Assembly (NCBI RefSeq): GCF_004010195.1
Contig: NC_057711.1
Location: 135,311,444 to 135,375,443, forward strand
Direction of reading: 5' to 3'
Source: Chiloscyllium plagiosum
Lineage: Eukaryota
Length of the DNA stretch: 64,000 nt
In this document: in pieces, positions 1,033-60,790 of the stretch
Position numbering within the stretch: position 1 is the first letter of the stretch
Layout: each line of letters opens with the position of its first letter
Made by a program: the position numbers and the translations under genes
The notes under the pieces: generated by a model
Seen by the model: the letters and a program-made list of their open reading frames with translations, nothing else
Database searches by the model: none
What the model was told of the DNA's origin: nothing

Positions 1033-1121
1033 AATAGAAATTGCTGAAAAAGCTCAGCAGGTCTGGCAGCATCTATGGAGAGAAATCAGAGTTAACACTT
1101 CAGGTCAAACTTTCCTCAGGA
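1033..1121 (-). mobile_element. Short Penelope-like pLTR insertion with decayed hammerhead
   Basis: 18-bp direct repeat CAGTGTTGCAGAGCTAAA at 1015-1032 and 1122-1139. Minus strand begins TCCTGAGGA. Homologous to copies at 26765, 28220, 39085 and 54597. Confidence 0.75.
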
Positions 1122-2139
1122 CAGTGTTGCAGAGCTAAAGTTTTGGCTTTCATTTTTAGTTTTAAATTACATTTTGTATGTAACTATTCTTGTTCACCAC
1201 CTGATGTAAACTCTTGTAAGAACATTTCTCAGAAGCCATCTTTGGTTGAAAAGCCCATATTTGTCCCATCATTCCTCAAAACCCAGATTAATATTCAACA
1301 TTAGTCACCAACCTCATAATTAATTCATATATTTCTTCCAATACATAAAAGTCTCCTTGCTTATCAGTGACCAGAATACTTTGCAGTACTCAAGACGCAC
1401 TATAGTTACACAACTTGTTTCTGGATTTTATTCCATTACTTTTTGCTGGACAGTTCAATAATTTATTGATTGCTGCTCTGCACTGGTTATACATATTGAA
1501 CATCCTGTTTACCAAGCGTCTAATTTCCATTTCAACTGCACCTTTTGTTATTGCATTGGAATTCAGGGAAAAGATCACAAGAAAGTTAAGAGTGGAATTT
1601 TTAAAAGAACTATATTTGAACTATTAGTTCTTTTTATTAAGAGTTTCCAAAAATACTTACTTATTCTGTGATTGATTCAAAATGCTGCTGTATTGTAATT
1701 TTGTTTTCTAAAATGTAAATGCTATTATGTAAAAAAGAATCAATGGCTTAAAATGTCATATTTGATCTTAATGATTTAATTTGACCTTTATCTCCATTTT
1801 ACTGTGACATATCACCATACATATTGATTAAAAATTCATAGTTCTGAAATATTTGCCCATTCTCCTGCTCACTGAAGTTGTGCAGAATATTTAGAATATA
1901 CATACTAGCTTGAAGCAATCATTAAAACTGATGTGGTTGGAAATAACTTGAACCTAATTCACCCTATGGAAATCTCAAGTGATCATACCAAATCATTTGG
2001 AAAAGATCAACTGCCGGATACATTTCCCAATGGGCAAATTGATTAAACAACCCCCAGACTCATTGGATTACTAAGCAAATCCATGTATTTTATAAATTTG
2101 AAAAAGTCCAGATCAAGAATGAAGTGGTAGTGAAAAGCT

Positions 2140-2328
2140 GAGCAAATTGCTTAATTGTCCATAGTATCCAGGGTTGTGTCTAGGCCAAGTGGATTAGCCA
2201 TGGGAAATACAGGTTTCCAAAGATAGGATGGGGGAATGGATCTGGGTATGATGCTCTTCAAGAGTGGTTGGTGTGAGCTCAATGGACTGAATGGCCTGCT
2301 TCCACATTGTAGGGATTCTATGGTTCTA
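2140..2328 (+). mobile_element. HE1-like V-SINE, 3' portion
   Basis: Ends in GGCCTGCTTCCACATTGTAGGGATTCTATGGTTCTA, matching the tails of the other copies. Confidence 0.7.
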
Positions 2329-2574
2329 AGAGCAAAGTGGGAGAAAAACCTAAGGCCAATATGGGAAAAGAACAAGGTGGAGTGCCTGGTGGGACAAAAG
2401 ATCCAAAGTCACAGAATTGATACCTCAGCTGGATGGCAGGGTAAGTTACAGATAAAATATTAATTTAATCCAATTATAACTTCAGCTAGATCAACTAGAA
2501 AAAAATAAACTCAAAGTTGATTAATTCCATAAACTTTAAGCAATTAAATAAATAAAACAGAGCTATACTGTGAC

Positions 2575-2800
2575 AGCAGTGAAGATGTTATGTCACAAAT
2601 GTGGGAATTGAGGAGAGTTTTGGTACGATGGGTAACAATATCTGTCAACATTTTGGTAGTCTAGAGAAATTTTAGCTCTGAGTTAAAGCCTGAGGTGCAT
2701 TGTGTAAACTAAAGAATTACTGGATTACCTGAACACACTGATCAAAAACTTTGTCGTATCTCTTCAAGTTAGATCGAGGTACAGGTGTGCTTGACAATCA
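2575..2800 (+). mobile_element. Degenerate CR1 ORF1 (zinc finger/coiled-coil) remnant
   Basis: MWE...ICQ...L..F.L...DYLNTL pattern, similar to the 16060 remnant. Very decayed. Confidence 0.4.
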
Positions 2801-2904
2801 GGACAGGAGTGCGTAATTACTAGGGTAAGGAAGCTTCAGTTCCTAGCTGCTAGCATGAAGTCTCAGACATCAAGGCTTCCTCTTAACAGTCAAAAGGGGC
2901 AGAT

Positions 2905-3267
2905 TGTTTATTTTTCAGGACTGGAGAGAGACCGCACGTGAGAACCAGACCTGTCTTGTCAGATTGCCAAAGGCATGATTACTGTATTAAAACAGATGTT
3001 GATTAATGATTAAATAATACATTCTTTTGTTAGGTACTTCATTAGAGTCAGGTTATTCCAACTCTTTTTTTTCACTGCAATGTAACTGTGTTGTAAGAAT
3101 AAAGTGCATTTTGATTAAAACTTTGTGGTGGACTAATTGAATCTCATCTGGAACATAGCACTTTATACTTAATAAGTATAAAATCAAATAAATATAAAAG
3201 TTAGGGTTTAGGCTTTTTCCTTACAATACTTTGGGAAGGATGGGGGGAGTCTGGTCTGTCCATAACA
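2905..3267 (+). mobile_element. Possible solo LTR
   Basis: Starts TGTT, ends CATAACA, has an internal AATAAA at about 3098. No clear TSD. Confidence 0.3.
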
Positions 3268-3951
3268 GCATGCTATAAAATATTTCAGTGTGGGAGGAGA
3301 GAAGTGTCTTACTCTTGTATAGCCCATGACACCTAGAAATGAGCTTGTAAAGGTGGATCAGAGATGACACTTTAAACATTGCTCATATTTACTGCTGCTT
3401 CCCAGACCTTACTATGATTCATTTATAATGACCAATGACGTGATCAAGATTACTTTGACTAGGATTTTTTTGTTCAACACATTTAGTCATGGCATGATGT
3501 TATGACCGTGGTTCAGAAACCCAAAGTACAATGCACATTTTTAACTTATAATTCCAAATGTGTTTGTTTTAAAGGAAGGCTATTACAGCCAGTTATGTTT
3601 ATGATGCAAATGAAGTGGCTGGCCTGAGGCAGAGAAACCCACAGAATGTCACAGCTAAAGATGCAAAGGGAAATCAAACAATAAACACTTCAAACAGGGA
3701 GGTGAAAAGGGAAATCAAAACACACTGGGTAATGATCTCTTGTGACTGCAAAGTTAATGAGGTACTGATGACACCCTGCTCAACAATAACCTACTTTCTG
3801 TGGAGTATTTCACAAATTGCAAACATATTTTTTGTTTTTCCTTTGAAGAATACACAAGGACAGGGGTTAATAAGTCAATCTGAACTCTACTAGAATTTGC
3901 TACTGGGACTGAACACTCTCAATCATGCCAGAAGGTGAAGCTACCCACTTT

Positions 3952-4255: not shown

Positions 4256-4396
4256 ACTTCTACTAGTCTGTGTTTCAGTATTAGTGTGCTATGAAGATCA
4301 CAGGTGAACAGCCATCTTCTAATTCTCTAAACCCCTTGAATTAACATTCGAGATAGGACAAGTGCAACAAATTGGGATAAGCACACGTTTAGTGAT

Positions 4397-4589
4397 CATG
4401 ATTTGTAGATGCTGGTGTTGGATTGGGGTGTACAAAGTTAAAGATCACACAACACCAGGTTAGAGTCCAACAGGTTTAATTGGAAGCACACTAGCTTTCG
4501 GAGCGTCGCTCAATCATCAGGTGGGCGCTCCAAATGCTAGTGCTTCCAATTAAACCTGTTGACTATAACCTGGTGTTGTGTGATTTTTA
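4397..4589 (-). mobile_element. Fold-back Penelope-like mini element (AGCT-core subfamily)
   Basis: Inverted arms of about 65 bp. 12-bp TSD ACGTTTAG(T/C)GAT at 4385-4396 and 4590-4601. The left arm carries an extra tail. Same family as 17183. Confidence 0.8.
4489..4523 (-). ncRNA. Minimal type-I hammerhead ribozyme motif
   Basis: cac-CUGAUGA-uu-GAGC-gac-GCUC-c-GAAA-GC-UA-gug. Stem I is CAC:GUG, and the core contains the palindrome AGCU. Confidence 0.65.
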
Positions 4590-5155: not shown

Positions 5156-5276
5156 GGGCTTTTGCCCGAAACGTCGATTTTCCTGCTCCTCGGATGCTGC
5201 CTGAACTGCTGTGCTTTTCCAGCACCACTCTAATCTAGAATCTGGTTTCCAGCATCTACAATCCTTGTTTTTACCT
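5156..5276 (+). mobile_element. Short Penelope-like pLTR insertion starting at hammerhead stem II
   Basis: 11-bp TSD GGGAGTCAGTA at 5145-5155 and 5277-5287. Begins GGGC-TTTT-GCCC-GAAACGTC. Confidence 0.8.
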
Positions 5277-7142: not shown

Positions 7143-7197
7143 TAAAGGCAACATCCCCAATCCTATTTCTTCTGTTCTTAATGTGTTTATCCAAGGA

Positions 7198-7500
7198 ATG
7201 AGAGGGACAAAAAGTGTTGGAATCCAAGACAGACAAGCAGGAGGCTGGAAGAACACGGCAAACCAGGCAGCATCAGGAGATGGAGAAGTCGATGTTTTGG
7301 CTGTAACCCTGCAGGACTGGGAATGGGTGTGGGGGGAGATGCAGATAAAGGGGGTGGGGGTGACAGAGTGGTGAGGGGGGGGAATTGGAGACAGGTGGAG
7401 GGTACGACCTGGTTGGTTGATGGGAGGGATGAATCCGATAGGTAGCTGAGAGGAATGGATGGGAGGGGGAGGGGTTGGGAAGGGAATCGGGGGATGCTCC
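7198..7500 (-). mobile_element. Penelope-like 3' end fragment
   Basis: 12-bp TSD TTTATCCAAGGA at 7186-7197 and 7501-7512. Reverse complement of the 3' region of the 18165-18711 element. Confidence 0.8.
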
Positions 7501-7982: not shown

Positions 7983-9082
7983 AGGACAAAGAACAAAGAA
8001 CAAAAGACTTACAGCACAGGAACAGGCCCTTCGGCCTTCCAAGTCTGCGCCATTCCATATCCTCTATCTAAACCTGTTGCCTATTTTCTATAGATCTGTA
8101 TCCCTCTACTCCCTGCCCATTCATGTATCTGTCTAGATACATCTTAAATGATGCTATCATTCCCGCCTCTACCGCCTTCACTAGCTACGCGTTCCAGGCC
8201 CCTACCACCCTCTGAATAAAGAACTTTTCATGCATTATCTCCCCTAAACTTTTCTCCTCTCACTTTGAACTCGTGACCCCTAGTAATTGAGCCCCCCACT
8301 CTGGGAAAAAGTTTCTTGCTGTCCACCTTGTCTATACCTCTCATGATTTTGTAGACCTCAATCAGGTCCCCCTCAACCTCTGCCTTTCTAATGAAAATAA
8401 TCCTAATCTACTCAACCTCTCTTCAAAGCTAGTAGCCTCCATACCAGGCAACATCCTGGTGAACCTCCTCTGCACCCTCTCCAAAGCATCGACATCCTTT
8501 TGTAATGTGGTGACCAGAACCGTATGCAGTCTTCCAAATGTGGCCGAAACAAAGTCATATACAACTGTAAAATGACCTGCCAACTCTTGCACTCAATACC
8601 TGTCCAATGAAGGAAAGCATGCCTGCTCCACAGATGCTGCCTGACCTGCTGTGCTTTTCTAGCACTACACTCTCAACTCAGATCTCTCTGAACATCAATT
8701 TTCCCCAGGACACTTCCATTTACTATATAGTTCGCTCTTGAATTGGATCTTCCAAAATGCATCACCTCACATTTGCCTAGATTGAACTACATCTCCCATT
8801 TCTCTGCCCATCTCTCTAATCAATCTAATGGTATTATCTGCAAACTTGCTAATCAGGCAGCCTACACCTTCCTCCAAATCATTTATATACATCACAAACA
8901 ACAGTGGTCCTAGCACGGATCCCTGTGGAACACCACTGGTCACAGGTCTCCATTTTGAGAAACTCCTTTCCATTACTATTCTCTGTCTCCTGTTGCCCAG
9001 TCAGTTTTCTATCCATCTTGCTCGAACACCCTGGAGCCCATGCAACTTCAACTTCTCCATCAGCCTAACATGGGGAACCTTA
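7983..9082 (-). mobile_element. CR1/HER1-type LINE, 3' part of RT
   Basis: Peptides [30 protein letters not shown] and [15 protein letters not shown]. (TTCTTTG)n-type tail at 7985-8003. Confidence 0.9.
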
Positions 9083-11223
9083 GTGAGTTTTGAGAAGATT
9101 TGTAGCTCAGGTTGAGGTTTTGGATGTAGGTTTGCTCGCTGAGCTGTAAGGTTCATTTCCAGACGTTTCGTTACCCTGCTAGGTAACATCTTCAGTGGGC
9201 CTCACGCAAAGCAATGCTGAAAATTCCTGCTTTCTATTTATATGTTTGGGTTTCTTTGGGTTGGTGATGTCATTTCCTGTGGTGATGTTTTTTCCTGTGG
9301 TGAAGTCACTTCCTGTTCCTTTTCTCAGGGGGTGGTGGATGGGGTCCAACTCGATGTGTTTGTTGAGTTCCGGTTGGAATGCCATGCTTCAAGGAATTCT
9401 TGTGCGTGTCTTTGTTTGGCTTGTCCTAGGATGGATGTGTTGTCCCAGTCGAAGTTATGTCCTTCCTCATCCGTATATGAGGATACTAGTGAGAGAAGGT
9501 CATGTCTTTTTGTGGCTAGTTGGTGTTCATGTATCCAGGTGGCTAGTTTTCTGCCTGTTTGTCCAATGTAGTGTTTGTTACAGTCCTTGCATAGTATTTT
9601 GTAAATGACATTAGTTTTGCTCATTGTCTGTAAAGGGTCTTTCAAGTTCATTAGCTGCTGTTTTAGTGTGTTGGTGGGTTTGTGGGCTAAAAGTGTTGGT
9701 GGGTTTGTGGGCTACCATGATGCCAAGGGGTCTGAGTAGTCTGGCAGTCATTTCGGAGATGTCCTTGATGTAGGGGAGAGTGGCTAGGGTTTCTGGACGT
9801 GTTTTGTCTGCTTGTTTGGGTTTGTTGCTGAGAAATCGGCGGACTGTGTTCATTGGATAGCCATTCTTTTTGAATACACGGTATAGGTGATTTTCCTCTG
9901 CTCTGTGTAGTTCCTCTGTGCTGCAGTGGGTGGTGGCTTATTGAAATAATGTTCTGATGCAACTTCGTTTGTGGATGTTGGGATGGTTGCTTCTGTAGTT
10001 CAGTATTTGGTTCATGTTTTGCATTTCTGTAGACGCTGGTTTGAAGTTCCCCATTGGCTGTAGTTCCATATTTGGTCTGTATGTGTTGTTTTCCTGTAGA
10101 CGCTGGTTTGAAGTTCCCCACTGGCTGTTAGTTCTACTGTGCCATTTAGGAATGGCCATCAATAATACCCTTACTGGCATAAAATTCACTAAAGAGGAGG
10201 AAAACAACAACAAACTGCCATTCCTTGATGTCACAGTAGAACTAACAGCCAGTGGGGAACTTCAAACCAGCGTCTACAGGAAAACAACACATACAGAATA
10301 TGGAACTACAGCCAATGGGGAACTTCAAACCAGCGTCTACAGAAATGCAAAACATGAACCAAATACTGAACTACAGAAGCAACCATCCCAACATCCACAA
10401 ACGAAGTTGCATCAGAACATTATTTCAATAAGCCACCACCCACTGCAGCACAGAGGAACTACACAGAGCAGAGGAAAATCACCTATACCGTGTATTCAAA
10501 AAGAATGGCTATCCAATGAACACAGTCCGCCGATTTCTCAGCAACAAACCCAAACAAGCAGACAAAACACGTCCAGAAACCCTAGCCACTCTCCCCTACA
10601 TCAAGGACATCTCCGAAATGACTGCCAGACTACTCAGACCCTTGGCATCATGATAGCCCACAAACCCACCAACACACTAAAACAGCAGCTAATGAACTTG
10701 AAAGACCCTATACAGACAACGAGCATAACTAATGTCATTTACAAAATACCATGCAAGGACTGTAACAAACACTACATTGGACAAACAGGCAGAAAATTAG
10801 CCACAAGGACAAATGAACAACAACTAACCACAAAAAGACATGACCCTCTCTCACTAGTATCCTCACATACAGATGAGGTAGGACACCACTTTGACTTGGA
10901 CAACACAATCATCCTAGGACAAGCCAAACAAAGACATGCACAAGAATTCCTTGAAGAGTGGCATTCCAACCGGAACTCAACAAACACATCGAGTCAGACC
11001 CCATCCACCACACCTGAGAAAAGGAACAGGAAGTGACTTCACCACAGGAAATAACATCACCACAGGAAATGGCCCCACCAACCCAAAGAAACCTAAACAT
11101 ATAAATAGAAAGCAGGGATTTTCAGCATTGCTTCGCCTGAGGCCCACTGAAGTTGTTACCTAGTAGGGTAATGAAACATCTGGAAATGAACCTTCCAGCT
11201 CAGCGAGCAAACCTACATCCAAA
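9083..11223. mobile_element. Penelope-like element as a 2.1 kb inverted duplication (RT thumb + GIY-YIG endonuclease + pLTR)
   Basis: NVIYKIPCKDCNKHYIGQTGRKL (GIY-YIG) on both arms, and IKFTKEEENNNKLPFLDV (PLE RT C-terminus) on the plus arm. 13-bp TSD ATGGGGAACCTTA at 9070-9082 and 11224-11236. A 35-nt tail is present on the left arm only. Frameshifted. Confidence 0.93.
9159..9198 (-). ncRNA. Minimal type-I hammerhead ribozyme motif
   Basis: cca-CUGAAGA-u-GUUACC-uagcag-GGUAAC-GAAA-CG-UC-ugg. Stem I is CCA:UGG. A mutated counterpart lies at about 11144-11183 on the plus strand. Confidence 0.75.
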
Positions 11224-11224
11224 A

Positions 11225-14592: not shown

Positions 14593-14829
14593 GGGTAGAG
14601 ATTGTGGTGCTGGAAAAGCACAGCAGTTAGGCAGATTCCGAGGAGTAGGAGAATCAATGTTTTGGGAATAAGCTCTTCATCAGGAATCAGCCCTTCATAA
14701 GCCCTTCTGATGAAGGGCTTATGCCCGAAACATCAATTCTCCTGCTCCTCGGATACTGCCTGACCGGCTGTGCTTTTCCAGCACCACACTCACTCTGATC
14801 TCCAGCATCTGCAATCCTCACTTTCTCCC
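14593..14829. mobile_element. Fold-back Penelope-like mini element
   Basis: Inverted arms (GCTGGAAAAGCACAGC / GCTGTGCTTTTCCAGC). CTGATGA-A-GGGC-TTAT-GCCC-GAAACATC at 14707-14734. Flanking direct repeat TG(A/G)TGGAGTTGG. Confidence 0.8.
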
Positions 14830-17160: not shown

Positions 17161-17182
17161 AGAGAAGACCAACAATACCAGA

Positions 17183-17312
17183 CTACCACCTGCTGAAGGA
17201 GCGTCGCTCAGAAAGCTGGTGTGCTTCCAATTAAACCTGTTGGACTATAACCTGGTGTTGTGTCATTTTTAACTTTGTACACCCCAGTCCAACACCGGCA
17301 TCTCCAAATCAT
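17183..17312 (+). mobile_element. Short Penelope-like pLTR insertion (AGCT-core subfamily)
   Basis: 12-bp TSD AACA(A/T)TACCAGA at 17171-17182 and 17313-17324. Contains cac-CTGCTGA-AGGAGCGTCGCTCA-GAAAGCTG. Matches the 4397 element. Confidence 0.8.
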
Positions 17313-18164: not shown

Positions 18165-18711
18165 CCTGACCCACCAATCACCACTCATTTTAATTCCCCT
18201 TCCCACACCCTTTTAGACATGACCATCCTTGGTCTCCTCCATTGCCACAGCGAATCAGACCGCAAATTGAAGGAACAACACCCCATCTTCCGTCTGGGCA
18301 GCCTACAGCCCGGTGCACTCAACATTGAGTCCTCCAATTTCAAATAACCTCCCTTCCAATCCCCCGGCTCCCTTTTTAGCCCCTCCCCCTCCCTCCCTTC
18401 CATTCCTCTGGTCGACCCTTCCTTCCAGCTACCAACTGGATTCATTCCTCCCATCGACCAACCAGGCCGTACACCCTACCTGTGCTCACAGAGCCCTATC
18501 TCAGCATCCTGCCCCCTTCCCTATCCAAAATCCTCCCCTACCCCACCCTGTTTTATCTGCAGCTCCCCCACACCCACCCTCAGTCCTAAAGCAGTGTTAC
18601 ACTTAAAATGTTGACTTCTCCACGTCCTGAAGCTGCCTGGCTTGCTGTGTTCTTACAGTCTCCTACTTATCTACCTTGGATTCCAGCAGCTGCAGGTTTT
18701 TTTTGTCTGTC
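18165..18711 (+). mobile_element. Penelope-like element 3' end (GIY-YIG C-terminus + 3' region)
   Basis: 18165-18347 translates to PDPPITTHFNSPSHTLLDMTILGLLHCHSESDRKLKEQHPIFRLGSLQPGALNIESSNFK*, with the HF, RKLKE and P.GLN motifs of the PLE endonuclease. Imperfect flanking repeat TTGACAG..GG.ACTGA. Confidence 0.85.
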
Positions 18712-18891
18712 TTTGACAGAGGGCACTGATGAATGTCATTCTGTGTACCACTTTTAATGTGACACAATGCAAACAAATTTCTGCCCACTACTCAGATGAA
18801 CGAATCATTTGGCAAAAGGAGTTTCACAAGGATCTTTACATCGATCACAATTATTTATTATCTATGATTAGACTTGGGAATCAGAAAATCA

Positions 18892-19454: not shown

Positions 19455-19618
19455 AGAACAAGTTATTGCAGATGCTGGAATCTGTACTGAAAGCTAAAAA
19501 TGCTAGAGATAACAGCTGGTCAGAGACCTGATTAAAAGTCATCCAGAATTGAAACATTAGCTTGCTTTCTCTCCATGGATGCTACCTGACCAGCTGTTAT
19601 CTCAAGCATTTTTTGGTT
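19455..19618. mobile_element. Fold-back Penelope-like mini element within an old CR1 fragment
   Basis: 16-bp TSD TCAATGTGTTTAAAAG at 19439-19454 and 19619-19634. Arms GAGATAACAGCTGGTCAG / CTGACCAGCTGTTATCTC. Confidence 0.8.
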
Positions 19619-26764: not shown

Positions 26765-26860
26765 TAGGAACAAAAATAGAAATTGCTGGAAAAGCTCGGC
26801 AGGTCTGCAGAAGGAGATCAAGAATTAACATTTCTGGCCGAGTGACCCTTCCTCAGAACT
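26765..26860 (-). mobile_element. Short Penelope-like pLTR insertion
   Basis: Minus strand reads agtt-CTGAGGA-AGGGTCACTCGGCCA-GAAATGTT-aatt. Flanked by GGTATA on both sides. Confidence 0.7.
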
Positions 26861-28219
26861 GGTATACCTCAGAAGATATATCAGGAACACCTACAACAGT
26901 CATTATTTATTTTCCTTTCCAGAATACTGATTAAAGTCCTGGTTGAGTTTCTCCAGCCTAACGTTTTTGACGGGGGAATGGGGCATCTCTGATCACTGGC
27001 ACTTGTTCGAAACTAACAAGTTGCTCCAACCATTGTAATACCTGACCTTACACAGACAAACACACATCAGTTATGCTGTTCTGCTAGGGGTTTTGTAGCA
27101 GTCTGAGCTAAGGAATCACAGGCAATTCCAGCAGGTATTCGTCAGCTCCAATATATAACCAGTCTCTGAAGTGAAAACACCTCAGTAAAAAGAGAATGCA
27201 ATTTTTTAATGACATTGTGGAGGTGATATAATTCACCCTACCTTTAGCAAGGAAAACGTTGTATGAAATGTCATTCTTTATTGACCATCTCACTTTAAGT
27301 CAAAGGATGCAATCTGGGCATTAAAAATCTAATAACTTTCTTTTTAAAATTTACTGCTAAACACCTGGATATGGGTTTATGTGTCATTATGCAGAACCTG
27401 AGCATGCTGCATAATATGGATACTTTTAATTAGCCTGTTTAAAGAGGCTAAGACATACTGATGGAGCACACGGAACTTGAACTAAGGACTCCTAGCTCAA
27501 AAAGTAGGACACTACCACTGCATCACAAGAGCCCCAGCTGCAGAAGCTAAACCAACTTTCACAAACTGTATCAGCAGGGTCTGGTCTGTTCTTAATAAAT
27601 GTATTGAGAAGTAATAATGAATAATAATCAGATTGTACATTTCAGAAATGAATAACAAGTGTTTTTTTTTCACATTTTGTCCACTAATTGACATGTTTCA
27701 CTTGGATATTATTTAAGTAACATTGAAAATGCTGTGCAGGAGCAAGAATACTGACACCAAAAAGTGGTCTTTTGACCTTCTGTAGAATTGCATGTGGCAA
27801 ACTCAAGATTAAATCCCAATATCTTTATGTTGGGATTTGACAATTCATGATTAAGTTTCCATCAGCAGAAAGTGCCTGGCTGTATACCAAGAATTGTGAG
27901 AGTTTGAATGAGTTGAATATGCTTCAGCTTGTATTTAAAGTTATTATAGATTCACCTGTCATCTGTATTTGGATCCTAGTATCATTTTCCTCTATCTATT
28001 TGTCTTTCTGACCTTGGTAATGTGTTTTACAGAGACACCAACTCAAGTTCAACTCTGCTACTTAAAGCCAATCCGCATCTCTTAAGGGAAGATGCATTTT
28101 TACAATAGCAGGTCCTGAAGCCATTCTAGAACACAGTTCAAATTGTGAAAGAAATAAAAATCAAAGTGTCAAGCTCCAACGTTCTCCAATAGACTTCTGG
28201 AGATTTGTAAGTGATTTAT

Positions 28220-28428
28220 GAACAGAAGTTGGAAAAGCTCAGCAGGTCTGGCAACATCTGTGAACTAGAAATTAGAGTTAATGTTTCAGGTTCAATACTC
28301 TTCCTCAGAACCCAAAACATTACCTTTGATTTCTCTTCAAAGATGCTGCCAGACCTACTGAGTTTTTCCAGCAACTTCTATTTTTGTTTCTTATTTACAG
28401 CATCCGCAGCTCTTTCGGGTTTTTTTCA
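28220..28428. mobile_element. Fold-back Penelope-like mini element
   Basis: Arms GGAAAAGCTCAGCAGGTCTGGCA / TGCCAGACCTACTGAGTTTTTCC. The centre lies at CTTCCTCAGAA (about 28300-28310). Confidence 0.75.
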
Positions 28429-31633: not shown

Positions 31634-31836
31634 GGAGAAAGTGAGGACTGCAGATGCTGGGGATCAGAGCTTAAAAATGTGTTGCTGGAAAAGCGCAGCA
31701 GGTCAGGCAGCATCAAAGGAGCAGGAGAATCGACGTTTCGGGCATAAGCCCTTCTTCAGGAATCCTGAAACATCGGTTCTCCTTCTCCTTTGATGCCGCC
31801 TGACCTGCTGCGCTTTTCCAGCAACACATTTTTAAG
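31634..31836. mobile_element. Fold-back Penelope-like mini element (young)
   Basis: Arms CTTAAAAATGTGTTGCTGGAAAAGCGCAGCAGGTCAGG / CCTGACCTGCTGCGCTTTTCCAGCAACACATTTTTAAG. Extra tail on the left arm. TSD AAGGCCATGCA / AAGACCATTCA. Confidence 0.85.
31727..31764 (-). ncRNA. Minimal type-I hammerhead ribozyme motif
   Basis: gauuc-CUGAAGA-a-GGGC-uuau-GCCC-GAAA-CG-UC-gauuc. Core intact, stem I weak. Confidence 0.65.
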
Positions 31837-39084: not shown

Positions 39085-39175
39085 CAGAAATGGCTGAAAA
39101 AACTCAGCTGGTATATAACATCTGTGGAGAGAAAGTAGATTTAACATTTCAGGTCCAGTAACCATTCCTCAGAAG
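39085..39175 (-). mobile_element. Short Penelope-like pLTR insertion
   Basis: Homologous to the 1033 and 26765 copies. Ends CCATTCCTCAGAA. TGCCTCT repeats lie nearby on both sides. Confidence 0.65.
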
Positions 39176-39627
39176 TGAGTTGCCTCTTTTTAATGAGTTT
39201 GAATAAATTTGGGATTTATTCCCTCGAGAAGGCTTCCATAGTTTTATTTCTATGATTGGCAGGAGAGTGAAGGAGGAAGGAGTGTTGCTAAAAGCCCCAT
39301 TATGACAAACCCAATAACAAACTAATTAGAGAGAGGGACAGTTGGGAAAGAAGGAAATGTAGGCTGACAAAGCAAGAGGATATGGTAGCATTGCAAAGCA
39401 GCTACCCAGATAACAATAAGTCCCAGAGTGGGACAGGAAGGGACATCAGATACAAACATAGAAAAGCAGCAGTAAAGAGAGTCAAAAGGGCTGTTACAAC
39501 ACTGGAGATAGGCAGCTAAATAAAATCAGCCTCTGTATTTGTAAGACAGTAAAATTAAAATCATTGAAGAGCCCCCAGTAGTTACTCCAATGGTTCCCTA
39601 GCAGACTTTTGAATAACCACCCTCAAG

Positions 39628-41059: not shown

Positions 41060-42500
41060 TCATTCATTCATGGTACATAGGCATTGCTGGCTGGCCAGCA
41101 TTTATTGTCTGTCCCTAATTATCCTTGAGAAGGTAGTGATGAGCTGCCTGCTTGAACTGTTGTAGTCCTTGTGTTGTAGGCTGACCTACAATGCCCTTAG
41201 GGACAGAATGTCAGGCTTTTAACCAAGTGACACTGAAGGAACAGCAATATATTTCCAAGTCAGGATGGTGAGTGACTTGGAGAGGAGCATGTTGATGGTG
41301 GTTTCCCATATATCTACTGACCTTGTCCTTTTAGATAGACGTAGTCATAGGTTTAGAAGAGGCTGGGTTGAGAGTGTGGTGCTAGAAAAGCACAGTAGGT
41401 TAGGCAGCATCTGAAGAGCAGAGAATCGACATTTTGGGCATAAGCACTACATTTGGAATGATGAAGGACTTATGCCCAAAACATTGATTCTCCTGCTCCT
41501 CGGATGCTGCCTGAACTCTGATCTACAGCATCTTTGGTCCTCACTTTCTACCATTTGGGAGATGCTGTCTGAGGATCTTTGGAGAATTTTTGCAGTGCAT
41601 TGTGTAGCTAGCAGACACTCCTGCTACTCAGCACCAGTGCTAGAGGGAGTGAATGTTTGTGGATGTGGTGCCAATCAAGCAGGCTGCTTTGTCCTGCTTC
41701 TTGAGTGTTTTTGGAGCTGTACCCATCTAGTCAAGCAAGGAGTATGCCATCACATTCCTGACTTGTGCCTTTTTAATTGTGGACAGACTTTGGGGAGTTG
41801 GGAGGAGAGTTATTGGCTGTAATATGCCTAGCCTTTGGCCTGCTGTTGTTGTCACTTTGTTTATGTAGTGAGGCCAGTTGAGTTTCTGATTAATGGTAAA
41901 CCCAAGGATGTTGATAGTGGGGAATTCAGTGATGGTAACACCATGGAATGTCAAGAGGTAGTGGTTAGATTGTCTCTAGTTGAAAAAGATCATTGCCTGC
42001 CATTCGTCTACCGTGCATGCTACATGCAACTTGTCAGCTCAAGCCTAGATAATGTCCAAATCTTAATGTACTTAAGTATGGACTATTTCAGTATCAGGGG
42101 AGTCGTGAATGGTGCTGAACATTGTGCAAGCATTGGCGAACCTCCCCACTTCTAACCTTCTAATAGAGGGATGGTCATCGATGAAGCAGCTGAAGATGTT
42201 TGGATCTGGAACACTACCCTGAGGAACTCCCTGCACAGATGCTCTGGAGCAGAGATGACTGACCTCCAACAACCACAACCATTTTCCTATGTGCCAGGTA
42301 TGACTAACCAGTGAAGAGTTTGCCCCTGATAGCCATTGATTCCAGTTTTGCTAGGGCCCCTTGAAACTACACTCAATTGAATGCAGCCTTGATGTCAAGA
42401 GCGGTCACTCTCCCCTCCCCTCCCCTCTGGAATTCAGCTCTTTCATCCACGTTTGAACCAAGGCTGTAATGAGGTCAGGAGCAGAGTAGCCCTAACGGAA
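41060..42500 (-). mobile_element. Non-LTR retrotransposon (CR1/L2-group RT, distinct from HER1)
   Basis: Peptides GVPQGSVPDPNIFSCFIDD..FANACTMF and ILGFTINQKLNW. The 3' end on the minus strand reads ACAATAAATGCTGGCCAGCCAGC..(ATGA)n. Confidence 0.8.
41366..41550. mobile_element. Fold-back Penelope-like mini element
   Basis: Same family as 14593. TGATGAAGGACTTATGCCCAAAACATT lies at the centre. Confidence 0.75.
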
Positions 42501-45305: not shown

Positions 45306-45562
45306 GCCATGGTGTTGGAGGTAATTGCAGATTGGTAGAGAACTGACTAAATAGCAGAAGATAGAGTTGGGAAAAAAGGGGACATTTTCCCAATAGTAGG
45401 CTGTGACTAGTTGCAGGCGACAGGGATCGATGTTGTGCACAGTTATTTACAATATATATTAATGACTTGGAAGAGGAAACTGAGTGTTCAAAGTTTGTGA
45501 GAAGATTTGTAAGTCGGGTGCTCGTTGCTGTGGTTCTGTTCGCCGAGCTGGAAGTTTTTGTT

Positions 45563-45602
45563 GCAAACGTTTCGTCCCCTGTCTAGGTGACATCCTCAGT
45601 GC
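45563..45602 (-). ncRNA. Minimal type-I hammerhead ribozyme motif
   Basis: gca-CUGAGGA-u-GUCaCCU-agac-AGGgGAC-GAAA-CG-UU-ugc. Stem I is GCA:UGC. Confidence 0.72.
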
Positions 45603-45916
45603 TTGGGAGCCTCCTGTGAAGTGCTTCTGTGGTGTTTCCTCCGGCATTTATAGTAGCCTGTCCCTGCCGCTTCCGCTTGTCAGTTTCAGCTGTCCGCTGT
45701 AGTGGCCGGTATATTGGGTCCAGGTCTATGTGTTTGTTGATGGAGTTTGTGGATCCACAAACTCATCCACAAACTCCATCAACAATCACATCGACCTGGA
45801 TCCAATATACCGGCCACTACAGCGGACAGCTGAAACTGACAACCGAAAGCGGCATGGACAGGCCACTATAAATGCCGGAGGAAACACCACAGAAGCGCTT
45901 CACAGGAGGCTCCCAA

Positions 45917-45956
45917 GCACTGATGATGTCGCCTAGCCAGGGGACGAAACGTTTGC
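45917..45956 (+). ncRNA. Minimal type-I hammerhead ribozyme motif
   Basis: gca-CUGAUGA-u-GUCgCCU-agcc-AGGgGAC-GAAA-CG-UU-ugc. Confidence 0.72.
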
Positions 45957-48379
45957 AACAAAAACTTCCAGCTCGGCGAACAGAACCACAGCAAACTGAG
46001 TGTACTACCAGCAAGTTTGTGGAAGACATAAAAATTCTGGGAAGGCAAGTGGTGCGGATGTCACAAAGAGTTAGCAGAGGGACAAAGACAGTTAAGCAAG
46101 TGGGCAAAATTTTGGCAGATAGAATATGATGTGGGAAAATGTGAAGGTATCAACTTCTGTAAGAAGAGAAGTTGAATATTATTTAAATGGTGAAGAACAG
46201 CAGGATGTTTTAGAACAGAAGGATTTGGGACTCCTCATACATTAATCATAAAAAAAGAATCATCCAGGTTCAGTGCGTAATAGAGAACAGAGAAGGTAAA
46301 TGGAATGTTGGTCTTTATTCAAAAGAGAGTGGAGTATACATGTATGAAGTCTTGCTGAAACAAAACAAAGCACTGGTCAGAGTACAGCTGTAATATGGTG
46401 AACGTTTTTGTTGCCCTTCTAAGCAAAGATATACTAGCATTGAAGGCAGTCCAGAGAAGGTTCACTAAGCTGATATCAGGTATGGAGGAACTGTCTTACG
46501 AGGAGAAGTTGAGTAGATTGGGCCTGGACTCAATGGAATATAGAGGAATGAGAAGCAATCTTATTGAAACATACAAGATTCTTGGCAGGGTAAATGTTGG
46601 GAGTTTGATATCCCTTGTGGGAGAGTTTAGGTGTGTGGTTGAAAAGAGAATACTTGCCTATTAACTGGAGCAGAGTGTTTAAGAAAAGAGAGGTTAAGCC
46701 GGATCAATATAAAATGTTGGTTCAGTCACACTGAGAGTATTGCACGCAGTTCTGGAATCCACGTTTTGGAAAGGATGTGATTGCACTGGAGAGGGTGCAG
46801 AGCAGATTTCCCAGATTGTTGCCTGGGTTGGAGGGTTTTGGTTATGAAAAGAAATTGGCTAGATGGGAGTTGTTTCCTTTGGAACAGAGGAGACTGAAGG
46901 GAGATGCAGTTGAGTTGTATAAAATTCTGAGGGGCAACGATACAATAGACAGAAAGAAAGTTTTCCCCTTGATGACCAGTGGCAGGTATTTAAGGTAAAA
47001 GGCAGAAGGTTCAGAGGACATGTGAGGAAAAATGTTTTCACCTAGAAGGTGGTGGGAATCAGGAACTCACTGCCTGTAAGAGTGGTGTAGACAGAGACCC
47101 TTCTCACATTTAAGAAGTATGATTAATAGTGGCCGTCTTCTCTCTAGGATGAGAGATTTTAAAACTAGGGAGCCTAAGGTGAGAGGAGAGAGATTTAAAA
47201 AAGACATGAGTGGCATTTTCTTTTACCCAGAGGGTGGTTTGCATGTGGAATAAACTTCCTGAGCAAGTGATGAATGCAGGCGCAGATATAATGTTTAAAA
47301 GACACTTAGATAAGTATTTAAACAGGAAAGGTTTAGAGGGATATGGGCCAAGTGCAGACTAGTTTAGTTTGGGATTATGTTCAGCATGGACTGGTTGGAC
47401 TGAAGGGTCTGTTTTTGTGCTGCGTGAATCTATGACTCTGTAAGTATTTAGTTGTAAACTTGCAAAGTCATGTCATACAAAACTCATGATGAAGTGCAGG
47501 AAAATGGGATTGGAATAGTTAGATGTCTGGTTTTAAATCAGTGCAGACTCAACAGATGAAGGATCCTTTATATGCTGTAGATCTCTTTGACTGTGGGGCA
47601 AAATCTCAGAATAAGGAGTCACACATTTAAGACAGAGATGAGGTGGAATTTCTTCTCTCAGATGGTCATGAGTCTGTGGAATTCTTTATCTCAACAGACT
47701 GTCGAGGCTGGGTCACTAAGTCAAGATAGACAGATTCTTAATCCATAAAGGTTATGGAGAAAGGGTAGGAAACTGGAATTGAGGGTTATCAAGTTATCCC
47801 TGATCTCGTTGAATAATGAAGTAGACTCGATGGGATGAATGGTCTATTTCTGCTCTTATGTCTTATGGTGTTAAACCTGCTGAAAGCTAGAGGATCACAG
47901 GGCAAGTAAACTTTTACAGTTTTCTTAAGTTACCTTGCAAACCAGTCCGAGCAAAACTACTTCTCCAAGTCTGCATACAATGGGCTGATGATAAAATTAT
48001 TGATGATATCAGACAGCTGCATGACCTTGAATGAGACCCTGTGAACATTCCTGTATGTGCCGAAGACAGCATAATTATAGTTGTTTTTCTGTACTTGCAC
48101 AATTTGTTTTTGGTTCTGGTTGTTTGTTACATTGTATAAGAGAGAGAGTTTCATACCAAGTTGTCGGACTTCACCTCGGGTCGTGAACAGTGCCAGGAAT
48201 GAACCTCAGCTCCCAGAGCAGCCATCAATTGAGGGGTCCCTGTTGTGCTGGGGAACACAAGACTTCTTGCTCTCCTTTTCTTTCTTTCTCATCTTTCTTA
48301 GACTGTAGATGGTCATATTTCAATCTTTTTATTTACTTTCTTTTCCTTTTTTTATTATTCGTATTTAAGCAAATTGCTA

Positions 48380-53639: not shown

Positions 53640-55560
53640 AATCAAAGAGGGACCGACCAGATTAACATCATCAGGGCACACCTCCAACTCACTTGTAATC
53701 CATTTCACTTTGGAGCACACTTTGCATTCTAACACTTTTTTCATACCTCTTGGCTTCCAGGACAAGCATCCATCTCATATATTGGAGGACAGAATATCTC
53801 AGGGCCTCTTGATTAATCTTTTCAGATTGGGGTTAAGATTGTGCCAAATTGGATGCTGTCACCATATCTGCCATGCCTTGCTTTTGCCTTTCTGCTCCCT
53901 CCATCAGGGTTCAGGGGTTTGCAGTCCTTCAGTCTTGCTGTTTAGTGCAGGCAGCTTGTCATGACTTGTCAGCAGGCATCAGTCAAAGGATGAGGATGCG
54001 GTTGTATGGCGCAGTGCTACATCAATGCCACACCTTCAGAATGTGTCAGCAGCTTCAAAACACACTGATTATGTTTCAACCAAATGGCTATGAGTCAAAA
54101 TCAAAGAAGAGTTGTTCCCAGTTAAGGGATACTGCCATTGGTCAGGAATTCTGCTCCATTACAGTACAGACCATCAGTTCTGCAGGTCCAGTACAAGTCC
54201 AGAGATGAGCAGTGACCTGCACAGAGATCCGTCATTGATTTGGTCACTTTGCCAATCACGGTTTCCTTCCAAGTCAGTCTGGGTAGGTTGTGGTGATCTC
54301 TGGGGATCTGTTCATTAAAAGTCAAGGCAGGCTAGCAGGAGCCAATTCTGATGGTAGGGAAGTCAGTTTCCAGGGATTACAGGCAACATGCAGACAGCAG
54401 AGGAGACTATACTTACAACAAGGGGTAGATGAACTTATAAGAATTAGCAATGTTACTACATTGGAGGTCATGAGTTACTGCAAAAGGAAGGGATCAACAA
54501 TGGTCACCACAACACTAGCTTTGACAGAGGGGAGGGAAGTGCTTTTGTATGGCTCAGCTGAAGGGCTTCAGGAGGTATTGGTGGGAGATGAAGACTTAAA
54601 AGAAAGAACCAAAACAGATATTGCTGGAGAAAATCAGTACAGTCTGCAAGCATCTGTGGAGAGAAAGCAGAGTTTTTCCTTCGAGGGTCACTGGACCTAA
54701 AATATTAACTCTGTTTTCTCTCCACAGATGCTGCCAGACCTGCTGAATTTCCCCAACAATTCCTGTTTTGGCTTCAGCTTTCCAGCATCCACAGTCCTTT
54801 ATTTTACGTAAGGAAAAAAGTTGGGCGCCAATGTATAGAACCTCATCACTGATGGAGTTGACACAGAGTGCACGACAGAATGGAGGATGACAGTTTGGGA
54901 GAGGTTTAACTAGGTGAATGAACTGAGCCAACAATTCAGTATGCAACCTGAGCTATCTGCCACTGTCATCCGAATTGTAAATGCATACTTGGATTGGAGA
55001 AGGTCAGTGATCATAGCTGGAGTGGGTGGAATAAGTGTCCTGCTTTTGTCTGAAGGTGAGGGCCCTAATTGTGAGTGATGTGAGGCCTCTCACAGAAAAT
55101 TATATTAGTTAGGCAGCTACACAGAGCAAGTTAAAGACATCTGTAATCATAGAATTCTGCAAATAAAATATACGCAGTGTCCAACCACGTGGGCGACAAA
55201 TCCCAACCACTAGCAATCCTGACCATGCCATCGGTCATTACAAATCGATCATAGACATCACTGTGGGCAGGAGTAATAACAGGTGACCTGAAAAATGTCA
55301 GAATTCACAAAGACAATCCAAGTTCGCAAAGACTGCACAAGAGTACAGAGCTGAATTCCTCTCACCTTGAACTGCAAATATTTAACAACACACTTTTATG
55401 CAATGCTACCTTTCCTGGGTGATGTGTCGATGCAAAGTTTCAGAAATGCCTTTGCACTTATGGTCTGGTCTACTGTATTTACATAACAATTCTTATGCTT
55501 TGTATATATCTGAATAATGCCCACTATGTCAGATGTACAAGCATTCAATGACCTTCCTTG
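53640..55560 (-). mobile_element. Degenerate Gypsy/Ty3 pol fossil (RT, RNase H, integrase)
   Basis: Minus-strand peptides in canonical order: LKLCID, VFANLD, YDRFVMTDG (RT); VADSSG, SHQYLL (RNase H); STAPYN and KWI (integrase region). Many deletions. Confidence 0.55.
54600..54806. mobile_element. Fold-back Penelope-like mini element
   Basis: Arms AGCATCTGTGGAGAGAAA / TTTCTCTCCACAGATGCT. The centre lies at GAGGGTCACTGGACCT. Confidence 0.75.
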
Positions 55561-55661
55561 TTAGAATTCTCCATGTCCACTATACTGAGGACTATATTAG
55601 ACTATCATCTGCATGTGATGTAAGTGCTAACTGCTGACATTGCTAAGGACCTGTTCTGTTT

Positions 55662-55748
55662 AAGAAGGGCATGTGCCCGAAACGTCGAATCTTCTGTTCC
55701 CTAGATGCTGCCTGACCTGCTGTGCTGTTCCAGCAATAAAGTTTCAGC
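55662..55748 (+). mobile_element. Short Penelope-like pLTR insertion
   Basis: Begins AAGA-A-GGGC-ATGT-GCCC-GAAACGTC. Confidence 0.75.
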
Positions 55749-56046: not shown

Positions 56047-56138
56047 GGTAGACAGGCAGGAGGCTGGTAGAACACAGCAAGCCAGGCAGCACCAGGAGGT
56101 GGAGGAATCCACATTTCAGGTGTAGCTCTTCATCAGGA
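56047..56138 (-). mobile_element. Short Penelope-like pLTR insertion
   Basis: Minus strand begins TCCTGATGAAGAGCTACACCTGAAATGT. Same family as 30074 and 18165. Confidence 0.72.
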
Positions 56139-56282
56139 CACCCAGAAGGGGTGGGTGACCATTATATCTCAGTGGTCATTGAAGAGAAAACCATATTAGT
56201 TTTTTTTAATGCAAATAGCTGCTTCCAAGGATTCACTGGGGACATATATAGAACGTCTCAATACTTAGCCTACAGTGATATA

Positions 56283-58317: not shown

Positions 58318-58685
58318 CATAGAATCCCCACAGTGCGGAAAGAGAACATTCAGCCTAATACTACCCAACTTCCCATCCAGACTCAGCCCCCACCCTGACC
58401 CCCATTTCCTGAAGAAGGGCTTATGCCCGAAATGTCGATTCTCCTTCTCTTTTGATGCTGCCTGACCTGCTGCGCTTTTCCAGCAACACATTTTTAAGTC
58501 CCATTTCCAATGGCCAATCCACCTAACCTCGCATCTTTGGACTGTGGGAGGATACCAGAGCACCCGAAGGAAACCCACGCAGACACGGAGAACGTGCAAA
58601 CTACACAGACAGTCACCCAAGGGTGGAATCAAACCCAGATCCCTGATGCTGTGATGTAACAGTGTTAACCAATGAATCACTATGA
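58318..58685 (-). mobile_element. HE1-type V-SINE interrupted by a PLE fragment
   Basis: Tail at 58318-58400. V-domain and head at 58509-58685. Confidence 0.82.
58409..58499 (+). mobile_element. Short Penelope-like pLTR insertion starting at the hammerhead core
   Basis: CTGAAGA-A-GGGC-TTAT-GCCC-GAAATGTC. 9-bp TSD CCCATTTCC at 58401-58409 and 58500-58508. Confidence 0.82.
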
Positions 58686-58799
58686 GGCCCATTGATTGTG
58701 ATTGACTCGCACACGGGTACATTTAAAAATGATGCTGGCAGTAGAAAGCTTGGAAAATCCCAATTGTAGCGAGTACAAGTTTCATTGAGGAGAGTCAGG

Positions 58800-58885
58800 T
58801 AGTGTGAGCTGATAGCGTGAGCTAATGCTGTGAGCTGATAGTGTGAGCTAATGCTGTGAGCTTGTAGTGTGAGCTAGTGCTGTGA
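58800..58885. repeat. 13-bp minisatellite with 26-bp higher-order period
   Basis: About 6.5 units, mostly alternating TAGTGTGAGCTAA and TGCTGTGAGCTGA. Confidence 0.85.
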
Positions 58886-59911
58886 AGGTATGGTGTGTGA
58901 TACGCAATCAATGGGTTGCAAATGAGATGTGTAGCTTTACTCAACATGCCATCATAAAATATCTTTCCCGGGACAGCCCACAACAGGGTTTCAATGCACA
59001 GGGAATCTATTTTAAGAACATGGTCTCAGAAATAGGAGCAAGGGAATACGTTTTAGTCAATGTTTTGATAAAATTCATCTCAAAGATGTTTTTGATTTGT
59101 TATTGAACATTTGATTATTATTTAAGTTTTTTTTTCTGCGCTTCTTAGGATGTAAAAGAGGACACACAGCCTCAGGATTTTACCTCTGGGCAAGTCACAT
59201 GTCAGTATAATATACATCTCTGATTCACATCAGGCCATTCACAATACTGGTTCAGAAGAATTAACAAGAAACACTATCTGTGGTCATTTTAATAGGGTCA
59301 GAACACATCAATCTCAAACATCTAAATTGGTGATTTTCATTCTTTCCTTCCCGTATCGTTGTCTTGAAGTGAAAGGTTTTCCTGGAAGATACTGATCTTC
59401 ATGCAAACACATTTGGCATTTTAGTTTTCATTTCTTTTCCTGGCATGCATTACAGTGACATGAATCATGTTAATATGTTTCCTTCCGATCACTTGCATAT
59501 CATGTCCTGCTTGTAACAAATACGGCTTTCTCTGGCTTTTCTTCTACTCCTCCAGCAATGTTTGACAAAACACATTTTCCTGAAAACATTGCAATCTGAA
59601 TATGGGAAATTGCTCTTGTCAATCTAGCTCAGCGATGAAAGCTTAGCATTGTGACAGTGAGCTGCATCACTTTTAGCAGTTTTCGCGAGGAAAAGACAAG
59701 AGACATCTGCAAAATAAACAAATCTCCACAATTTCTGCCACAGGAATTTTTCAAAAAAAAACTGTCTTGTATGTTTTACATGCCTTTGGCTGCATTTAAA
59801 TCATTTAAATCGTTGTGGAATGTGCACACTGCTGGCCAGTGATGGAGAAGAAACAGAAAAGTTGGCAATGATTCTGAGAGGAATCAATGAGACCAACCAG
59901 TGCCAGCATGA

Positions 59912-60505
59912 ACATTAGAATGTCAGAAATAAGCCTCTGACCCATCAAGCCTACTCCACCCTTCAATAAGATCATGGCTGATCTTCTCGTGGATTCAGCT
60001 TCACTTACCCAGCCGCTCATCATCTCCCTTACTCCCTTTACTGTTCAAAAATCTTTTAATTTTGCCTTAAAAACATTTAACGAGGTAGCTTCAACTTCTT
60101 CAGTGGACAGGGAATTCCACAGATTCACAACCCTTTGGGTGAAGGAGTTCCTCCTCAGCTCAGTCCCAAATCTGCTCATCTTTATTTTGAGGCTATGCCC
60201 CTTAGTTCTAGTTTCAACCAACAGTGGAAGCAACCTCTCTGCTTCCATCTTATCTATTTCCCTCATAATTTACATGTTTTTGTAAGATCCCTCCCTCATT
60301 CTTCTAAATTCCAATAAATTTAGTCCCAATCTACTCAATCTCTCCTCATAAGTCAATCCTGTCAACTCAGGAATCAACTCAGTGAACCTCCTCTGCACCC
60401 CCTCCAGTGCCAGTGCATCCTTTGTCAAGTAAGGAGACCAAAACTCTACACAATACTCCAGGTGTTGCCTCACCAGCACCCCATACAGCTGCAGCATCAC
60501 CTCTA
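59912..60505 (-). mobile_element. CR1 3' end
   Basis: Peptides LVRQHLEYCVEFWSPYLTKDALALEGVQRRFT and RRNSFTQRVVNLWNSL. Confidence 0.88.
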
Positions 60506-60651
60506 TGGACACAGCTCCCTTATCCTCTTGTGCAAAGCCACTATCCTGGTCTTCCAAGAAGTTGTCTCCGATGGTAGCTCTCCCAGTGATAGCACAGACA
60601 TGTACGTCCCCTGCCTTTGTCACTGGCACTAGGCAAGTGATTTTTCCTACA

Positions 60652-60790
60652 GAGGCAGAGAACACAGGAGAAGCTCAGCAGGTCTGACACCACCTGGGGT
60701 GAGAGAAACCGAGTTAGCATTACCAGTTCTGCAGTTCTGAGAAAGACTCATACTGGACTCGATACGTTAACTCCGTTTCTAACTCCACAA
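60652..60790. mobile_element. Decayed fold-back Penelope-like mini element
   Basis: AAGCTCAGCAGGTCTG..GAGAAACCGAGTTA arm, then TTCTGAGAAAGACTCATACTGGACTCGATACGTTAACTC. Confidence 0.55.

Follow-up and report, generated by a model that had tools for sequence, protein, structure and literature searches.

Hammerhead-bearing repeats in the genome of Chiloscyllium plagiosum as Penelope-like element ends whose short Neptune-type copies are likely run-off products of capped, uncut RNA

Introduction

What are the short, often palindromic, hammerhead-bearing repeats in the genome of the shark Chiloscyllium plagiosum, and how were they made? The question was raised by a stretch of 64,000 nucleotides (RefSeq assembly GCF_004010195.1, contig NC_057711.1, forward-strand positions 135,311,444 to 135,375,443; hereafter the window), for which an original prediction made from the sequence had listed about 19 small elements with hammerhead ribozyme motifs. 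These had been assigned to Penelope-like elements (PLEs), possibly mobile in their own right, and not to miniature inverted-repeat transposable elements (MITEs). Our analysis gives a probability of roughly 0.75 to the following answer: the repeats are insertions of the pseudo-long terminal repeats (pLTRs) of at least seven PLE families, and the short ones of Neptune type are likely dead run-off copies of capped, uncut RNA.

Several published observations bear on this answer. PLE ends are reported to carry minimal hammerheads, most of them single motifs in truncated copies and others in opposite-strand pairs, with weak, dimer-dependent cleavage (PMC4209133). A transcription start site was located in a pLTR (PMC2377424), and further background is given in PMC6155905. 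PAc, the Poseidon element of Anolis carolinensis, initiates internally at two sites, and both target strands are cut and extended; uncut RNA is the main template, and hammerhead cleavage is protein-assisted (Frangieh 2024, PMC11167929). Capped full-length insertions of L1 and SVA are recognised by an extra 5' G (PMC11702581, PMC3287187).

Results

Repeat families and their reading frames

The copies were sorted into families A1 (with A1b), A2, A3, A4, B, C, and D. Exact 25-34-mers are abundant in the 3.56-Gb genome (A1, 1704; B, 15,571; A3, 2653; C, 4349; D, 7473), and the reversed controls gave 0. The coding sequences of GIY-YIG ends run into the motifs of A1 (L162, L170, L122), A1b (L008), A3 (L104), A4 (L066), and D (L161), and C is tied to reverse transcriptase (RT) and GIY-YIG frames within the window (9083..11224). 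The peptide encoded at 18177-18344 had 69,153 first-look candidates in the genome; among the matches listed, the top loci mostly continue via a 3' untranslated region (UTR) into an A2 motif. Locus L151 is a family B element in which an open reading frame (ORF) lies between two pLTRs with motifs 2517 bp apart, and an internal deletion has removed the endonuclease part; this pLTR-ORF-pLTR arrangement was demonstrated in family B only. RT and GIY-YIG were assigned by tblastn among copies and by motifs read by eye.

Since all seven families are connected to an RT or GIY-YIG frame, each is taken as the pLTR of a PLE, and the repeats are almost certainly end pieces of at least seven ORF-bearing PLE families. 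The prediction of ribozyme-carrying PLE derivatives was sound: the motifs belong to the minimal type-I hammerheads found in PLE pLTRs, and every family is ORF-linked. A Cys-rich linker before the endonuclease is present in A and B and absent from C. The long 3' end of B copies coincides with the ATG of the ORF, and the C and D frame opens at stem II and is uninterrupted to the tail end. Judged from the linker (PMC8557442) and the ORF start in these sequences, A and B are probably Neptune-type, and C and D are probably Poseidon-type.

At L249 (G000:C1 ~8,039,410-8,039,500), a C arm is flanked by B sequence on both sides, which points either to insertion of one PLE end into another or to a junction between families. 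Three A3 copies on C1 (L357, L359, and L363) have identical flanks, and this is probably due to segmental duplication or to a larger repeat that carries them.

Hammerhead motifs and sites

Positions within a pLTR are counted from C3 of the hammerhead core, and the predicted cut lies at about +28. All listed positions in the window carry repeats of hammerhead-bearing families; the sites number 21 and not about 19, and one tail at ~8612-8692 had not been listed. Both core boxes (CTGANGA...GAAA) are exact at 10 of the 21 sites, in 11 motifs (4520-, 9195-, 14707+, 26856-, 28308-, 31759-, 39172-, 45599-, 45920+, 56136-, and 58409+). The full minimal type-I descriptor (core, stem II of at least 3 bp, GAAA-NN-U-H, and stem I with 3/4 pairs) was matched by four motifs at three sites (9195-, 31759-, 45599-, and 45920+), and it had no match in 200 approximate dinucleotide shuffles of the window. 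Three of these motifs are the stretches proposed earlier as cleavage constructs (9159-9198, 31727-31764, and 45917-45956), and the fourth is in the other arm of the 45488 pair. At 17 of the 21 sites there is only a partial core, or the core is too decayed or truncated for the descriptor. Whole cores had been predicted beside truncated and decayed ones; this agrees with the exact boxes, but the full descriptor restricts whole motifs to three sites.

All DNA sampled gave 202 descriptor matches in total. The core tetramer is ACGT or AGCT in 159 of them, as predicted, and G10.1-C11.1 is a G-C pair in 161. In the descriptor listing the stems differ between families, with pairing kept around a fixed core. 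All stem I and stem II pairings quoted in the original prediction were found among the 202 matches, but B has GGAGC/GCTCC as stem II, D has an internal mismatch in stem II, and A1 usually carries a U-U mismatch in stem I (ATTC:GATT). An Rfam scan of the window gave 17 matches at E <= 10, all of them chance hairpins and none a hammerhead family. Among eight motifs folded as monomers, stems I and II formed for 9195, and z-scores were mostly weak.

Nine other regions (527 kb, chosen blind to repeats) contained 148 arms, or 11.2-23.6 per 64 kb, compared with 31 arms in the window; descriptor-intact motifs were equally dense (3.9 per 64 kb versus four in the window). The window is somewhat rich in arms yet not special, and the word swarm overstated it. 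Extrapolated from the 527 kb, the genome would hold about a million arms and ~216,000 descriptor-intact motifs. The sites are listed below, with the tail as the 3' extension described in the next section. The predicted size of 90-240 bp does not fit 9083 (2142 bp), 45488 (507 bp), 18165 (~550 bp), and 7198 (~300 bp).

1033..1119, minus strand: A3 (Neptune-type) solo arm, decayed core, short 3' end; 20-nt duplication 1013-1032/1120-1139 with 1 mismatch
4397..4589: B head-to-head pair; left arm (minus) with tail and core 4520, base mismatch in stem II; right arm short; 12-nt duplication
5156..5272, plus strand: A1b solo arm, 5' start within the core, long tail; 15-nt duplication with 2 mismatches
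7198..7500, minus strand: A2 5'-truncated copy, ~190 nt of 3' UTR, decayed core, long tail; exact 12-nt duplication
8612..8692 (ends approximate), plus strand: unlisted A1-type tail without core; a duplication was searched for and none was found
9083..11224: C (Poseidon-type) head-to-head insertion, tail on the left arm, intact motif 9195 (minus); duplication with a 12-nt exact core
9159..9198, minus strand: intact minimal hammerhead of C; the start codon of the PLE ORF sits at the base of stem II, and no stop interrupts the frame as far as the tail end
14593..14829: A1 head-to-head pair, left arm short, right arm tailed; 14-nt duplication with 2 mismatches
17183..17312, plus strand: B solo arm, 5' end at the predicted transcription start and 3' end at the long tail position, mutated core; ATTAAA at ~17230-17235; 12-nt duplication
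18165..18712, plus strand: A2 5'-truncated copy with GIY-YIG C-terminus (to 18347), 3' UTR, decayed core 18586, and tail
19455..19618: A4 head-to-head pair, decayed core; exact 16-nt duplication
26773..26871 (ends approximate), minus strand: A3 solo arm, core at 26856
28220..28424 (ends approximate): A3 head-to-head pair, core 28308 (minus); no clear duplication found
30074..30202, plus strand: A2 short arm, start at about -3, decayed core, long tail
31634..31836: A1 head-to-head pair; left arm (minus) with tail and intact motif 31759
39085..39178, minus strand: A3 solo arm, core at 39172
41366..41550: A1 head-to-head pair, decayed
45488..45994: D (Poseidon-type) head-to-head pair, intact motifs 45599 (minus) and 45920 (plus)
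54608..54808 (ends approximate): A3 head-to-head pair, truncated cores
55659..55745 (ends approximate), plus strand: A1 short arm, 5' start within the core
56047..56142, minus strand: A2 short arm, core at 56136
58405..58499, plus strand: A1 short arm, start at about -4, core 58409; 9-nt duplication
60652..60785 (ends approximate): A3/A4-like decayed pair

Tails, pairs, and target duplications

The 3' ends of B copies are bimodal, with 50/101 at +80..93 and 43/101 at +119..126. Those of C and D are also bimodal (about +70..78 and +105..116), and the two end positions, 35-40 nt apart, delimit the PLE tail. For the head-to-head pairs of B, C, and D (n=77, after four duplicate pairings were removed from 81), one long and one short end were found in 73 cases; nine window pairs judged by eye all have the same composition. 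Flanking duplications with a score of at least 10 were found in 57 of the 77 pairs, versus 0 of 400 mismatched flank pairs, and at 10 of the 21 listed window sites. They are 10-18 nt long with a mode of 12-13, lengths that include chance extension. The pairs range from 83 to 2142 bp in total, and both arm lengths and spacing are variable.

The insertion at 9083..11224 has RT C-terminal and GIY-YIG coding sequence in both arms, frameshifted. Its arms are 99% complementary over 353 nt in their inner parts and 93-94% in their outer parts, and fold-back synthesis or later conversion near the junction may account for the inner identity. Long pairs at L064, L215, L222, L274, and 45488 have arms of nearly equal length (e.g., -89/-87, -108/-100, and -157/-155), as if the cDNAs had co-terminated.

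5' starts and an extra G

The 5' ends were collected from the window and the 527 kb (179 arms; 5 of 184 near block edges were left out), and those of A2, A3, and A4 are imprecise because they were placed with only 2, 1, and 1 references. Among the 133 Neptune-type starts in the 527 kb, 51 fall in -12..+2, just 5' of the core. Two fall in -29..-13 and 25 further upstream, and the others are in +3..24 (31), in +25..33 (14), and beyond (10). For B, sampled as copies that contain +29..62, 54/101 starts fall in -13..+4 irrespective of the 3' end, and 2/101 are at the cut (+29). Long copies carry a TATA-like box ~30 nt 5' of an initiator-like A at -8 (B) or -4 (A families). Short copies are without this box.

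If short copies end at the cap, a G is expected often before the initiator-like A, as in full-length L1 and SVA. In a hand count of the first 100 B matches (of 4338), the base before the initiator-like A was G in 69, T in 22, and A in 9. For the position one base further upstream (3545 matches, first 100 counted), the figures were G19, A21, and T60 (Fisher p ~1e-12). The first 100 A3 matches, also counted by hand, gave G47, A27, and T26. In a stricter count, long copies were removed and bases templated by a partner or a duplication were set aside. B then had G in 12/16, versus 0/8 at two neighbouring positions, and A3 and A1c had G in 12/25 and 4/9. The G excess is strong in B, moderate in A3, and weak in A1. 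A literature search of titles, opening parts of abstracts, and selected passages, with subscription journals and Repbase notes outside its range, gave no report of start-anchored PLE copies with an extra G.

In the window, the B copy at 17183 has its 5' end at the predicted start position, and the G there lies within the duplication.

Transcripts and the poly(A) site of family B

RNA evidence came from X23, a poly(A) single-cell, 3'-primed run with the same species label, of which ~2 in 100 reads were examined. Family B accounted for 1849 and 2407 reads on two references. Poly(A) begins after +57 and +60 in 337 and 414 reads, where the DNA is without an A-run, and 12-15 nt past ATTAAA or AATAAA. 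The depth on the poly(A) strand drops from ~1150 to 336 at this site, which is upstream of both 3'-end positions, i.e., those at which reverse transcription would start. A rise in depth at about -17..+4 lies one read length from the poly(A) site and was given no weight. No read-end pile-up at the cut was reported in X23, a library that is blind to 5' ends, being 3'-primed, and to the 30-nt product. One back-joint, such as a circular RNA would give, was seen in 3 reads of this poly(A) library, and it also fits a genomic tandem.

The B pLTR as a poly(A) site in X23 was seen at L057:1529-1532, equivalent to 17247-17250 in the 17183 copy of the window. Sense-oriented B copies in introns could end host transcripts early. 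An AATAAA is also present at 55726-55735, in the tail of an A1 copy, a variant that most A1 copies lack.

One or two templates per pair

In B pairs, position 14 agrees between the arms in 21/23. A 2-nt indel is discordant in 11/49 callable pairs, whose arms mostly have position 14 in common, so recurrent slippage can account for the indel. In D, 2/13 pairs (window 45488 and L276) differ at several linked sites. Each arm of 45488..45994 starts in the last codons of the GIY-YIG frame, and the arms differ at +4, +11, and +17 (linked), matching two D subfamilies, with the right arm a mosaic that is a-type upstream. This suggests that two templates were used at times in D pairs, with gene conversion as an alternative. 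Two independent templates as a rule for pairs were considered and found unsupported, given the shared position 14 in B.

Neighbouring repeats

An abundant SINE-like repeat with a tRNA-like end occupies 3953-4258 and at least seven other places in the window; it resembles the shark HE1 SINE. Fragments that we take to be CR1-like LINEs from their peptide motifs lie at 11271-12061, 44746-45096, 60270-60674, and elsewhere, and several PLE ends are inserted into such fragments.

Discussion

How the short copies may have arisen

We propose that the PLE protein nicks both target strands ~12-13 nt apart and that reverse transcription would be initiated internally in the RNA, with one strand using the short position and the other the tail position. 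The different start site for each strand is suggested by the two internal start sites of PAc. Joining of the two cDNAs would give the MITE-like palindrome. Initiation at the start sites in the 5' pLTR would yield a cDNA that ends at the cap 90-130 nt away, just 5' of the core, and often gains a G. In B, most 3' pLTRs would lose the start sites through polyadenylation between these and the hammerhead, and the short product would be favoured. Since the short copies are without the TATA-like box, i.e., the promoter, they are expected to be dead and to decay. The hammerhead is predicted to act only in the RNA of the parent element, as a dimer or with protein help, and to be uncut in the templates of these copies. 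The RNA may come either from autonomous elements or from promoter-bearing, ORF-less orphan pLTR copies, which the PLE protein could copy in trans.

The step in which copying ends at the cap is probable. We lean, if only slightly, towards the wider statement that short Neptune-type copies are mostly complete products, in which the PLE RT copied capped, uncut RNA in vivo and the two strands were primed at different sites and at times on different RNAs, with B favouring its own first 90-130 bases and orphan pLTRs as possible sources.

Several observations weigh against this account. None of the 15 Poseidon-type starts falls in -12..+2; ~4 C arms begin at -17..-19, and D has no cluster. Even in the Neptune-type families the breakpoints are spread over ~15 nt, and 31/133 stop inside the core (+3..24). 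The spacing of motifs was used to predict the transcription start. Outside B, the G excess is weak or moderate, and only B was a blind test, since the A1 and A3 patterns were spotted by eye before counting; the hand counts were script-checked for the first 30 rows of the B and A3 start sets. Short copies also arise in A1 and A3, where no poly(A) signal was noticed, and the transcription seen in X23 is at family level, from many loci and a same-label organism. The pairs are compatible with one RNA or with two. As for the element assignments, the Pfam matches were below the curated cut-offs (RVT_1, E 0.0044; GIY-YIG, E 0.012-0.089), and the clade names rest on sequence motifs and not on an RT tree.

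Alternative explanations

The most serious competitor, which we consider unlikely, accepts the PLE origin and regards the short copies as ordinary 5'-truncated cDNAs from the 3' pLTR, with a hot spot caused by RT stalling or repair trimming at the hammerhead fold or at a protein site. 5' truncation is the standard reading (PMC4209133, PMC8557442), C and D resemble plain truncation, and the arms that stop inside the core and the broad spread of the long arms would fit it; the stem II palindromes could also serve as microhomology for arm joining. However, a stall is expected at the 3' foot of stem II, whereas the main cluster lies 5' of the core and only 2/133 arms end in -29..-13. Nor does a stall predict a G excess at one position with TATA-initiator spacing. 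A different use of the hammerhead, in which the short copies are cDNAs of the 3' cleavage product, would explain the 14/133 Neptune-type arms that begin at +25..33, near the predicted cut. Their density is ~1.6 per nt, against 1.4 per nt just upstream, and the former is inflated by the alignment anchor. Together with the near absence of B starts at +29, the presence of the core, which is 5' of the cut, in most short copies, and the lack of a reported read-end pile-up in X23 (a weak test), this makes such an origin highly improbable.

The short elements might instead propagate themselves like retrozymes, with hammerheads that cut and circularise their own RNA, as the original prediction had allowed. 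The very high exact-match counts would suit this, pLTRs can be moved in trans (PMC3846280), and non-autonomous PLE derivatives and PLE-derived retrozymes exist, also in one chondrichthyan (PMC8557442; 10.64898/2026.07.22.740005). The sampled DNA points elsewhere. A same-strand neighbour of the same family within 1 kb was found for 12/179 arms, all in pairs and none in tandem arrays, and a fixed unit is absent, with variable arm lengths and spacing. The head-to-head motifs lie on opposite strands, so they cannot form a dimer within one RNA. In a tree of A1 (109 copies, 74 short and 35 long, 88 columns), short and long copies are interleaved, with 33 label changes versus 29.8 after shuffling, at low resolution and for A1 only. 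Since all families are ORF-linked, the short copies are without a TATA-like box, and most cores are decayed, we regard self-propagation as very doubtful and do not retain the mobility proposed earlier. Least probable of all, and excluded for practical purposes, is that the palindromes are MITEs, DNA elements bounded by terminal inverted repeats. Of the 179 sampled arms, 101 do have an opposite-strand partner within 2.3 kb, which gives the palindromes their MITE-like look. However, a DNA transposon would leave fixed-length duplications between like ends, and here the duplications vary over 10-18 nt, the 35-40 nt tail is on one side in 73/77 pairs, total lengths and spacing vary, and the arms are PLE 3' ends. 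The variable duplications and the one-of-each ends both exclude MITEs and explain the resemblance, and the earlier statement that these are not DNA MITEs was correct. We therefore retain pLTR insertions of PLEs, with short Neptune-type copies as likely run-off products.

Significance

As a class the finding is ordinary: truncated and inverted PLE ends with minimal hammerheads have been on record since 2014. It matters for annotation, since about a million arms, by extrapolation from 527 kb, could end up annotated as MITEs. Should the short copies be run-off products, hundreds of thousands of them form a genome-wide in vivo record of how PLE tails, inverted ends, and solo pLTRs are made, and they bear on whether the hammerhead cuts before reverse transcription; orphan promoter-bearing pLTRs could then act as ORF-less sources. 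Run-off copying agrees with PAc, the sole in vitro PLE system.

Comparison with known systems

The motifs share with the PLE hammerheads of PMC4209133 the type-I core, an extra base before stem II, G10.1-C11.1, the palindromic 15.2-16.2, and a short stem I, as well as the presence of several consensus families per genome, of mostly single motifs attributed to PLE truncation, and of opposite-strand pairs 100-700 bp apart. They differ in number, with ~216,000 extrapolated descriptor matches versus 4,000-9,000 for coelacanth and Xenopus, obtained with different descriptors, and in the start-site clustering and G excess seen here. Like insertions of endonuclease-bearing (EN+) PLEs (PMC3846280, PMC8557442), they have inverted pLTRs, a 30-40 bp tail at one end, and duplications, and like those elements they have TATA and initiator-like motifs in a pLTR that extends into the first codons. 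Unlike in those reports, the duplications are longer (mode 12-13 versus 8-10 nt) and the tail asymmetry was counted (73/77). The same two papers favour self-priming or endonuclease resolution; the present data fit, without proving, two start sites on two strands.

Similar to PAc (PMC11167929), there are two putative RT start sites that define the tail, the C and D ORF starts at stem II, and no read-end pile-up was reported at the cut. In contrast to PAc, which showed no strand difference in start site in vitro, the pairs here nearly always have one of each; moreover, A and B are probably Neptune-type, with the B ORF beginning at the tail end. Animal non-LTR retrozymes (PMC7229834; 10.64898/2026.07.22.740005) also have type-I hammerheads, non-coding short copies, and PLE-related sequence. 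They form head-to-tail arrays with mostly canonical hammerheads and circular RNAs, whereas the copies here are single or head-to-head, and their motifs are minimal and mostly decayed. Finally, the short Neptune-type copies resemble full-length L1 and SVA insertions (PMC11702581, PMC3287187) in the extra G at the 5' junction and the fixed start. Unlike in L1 and SVA, a complete cDNA is here only 90-130 nt long, probably as a result of internal priming close to the 5' end.

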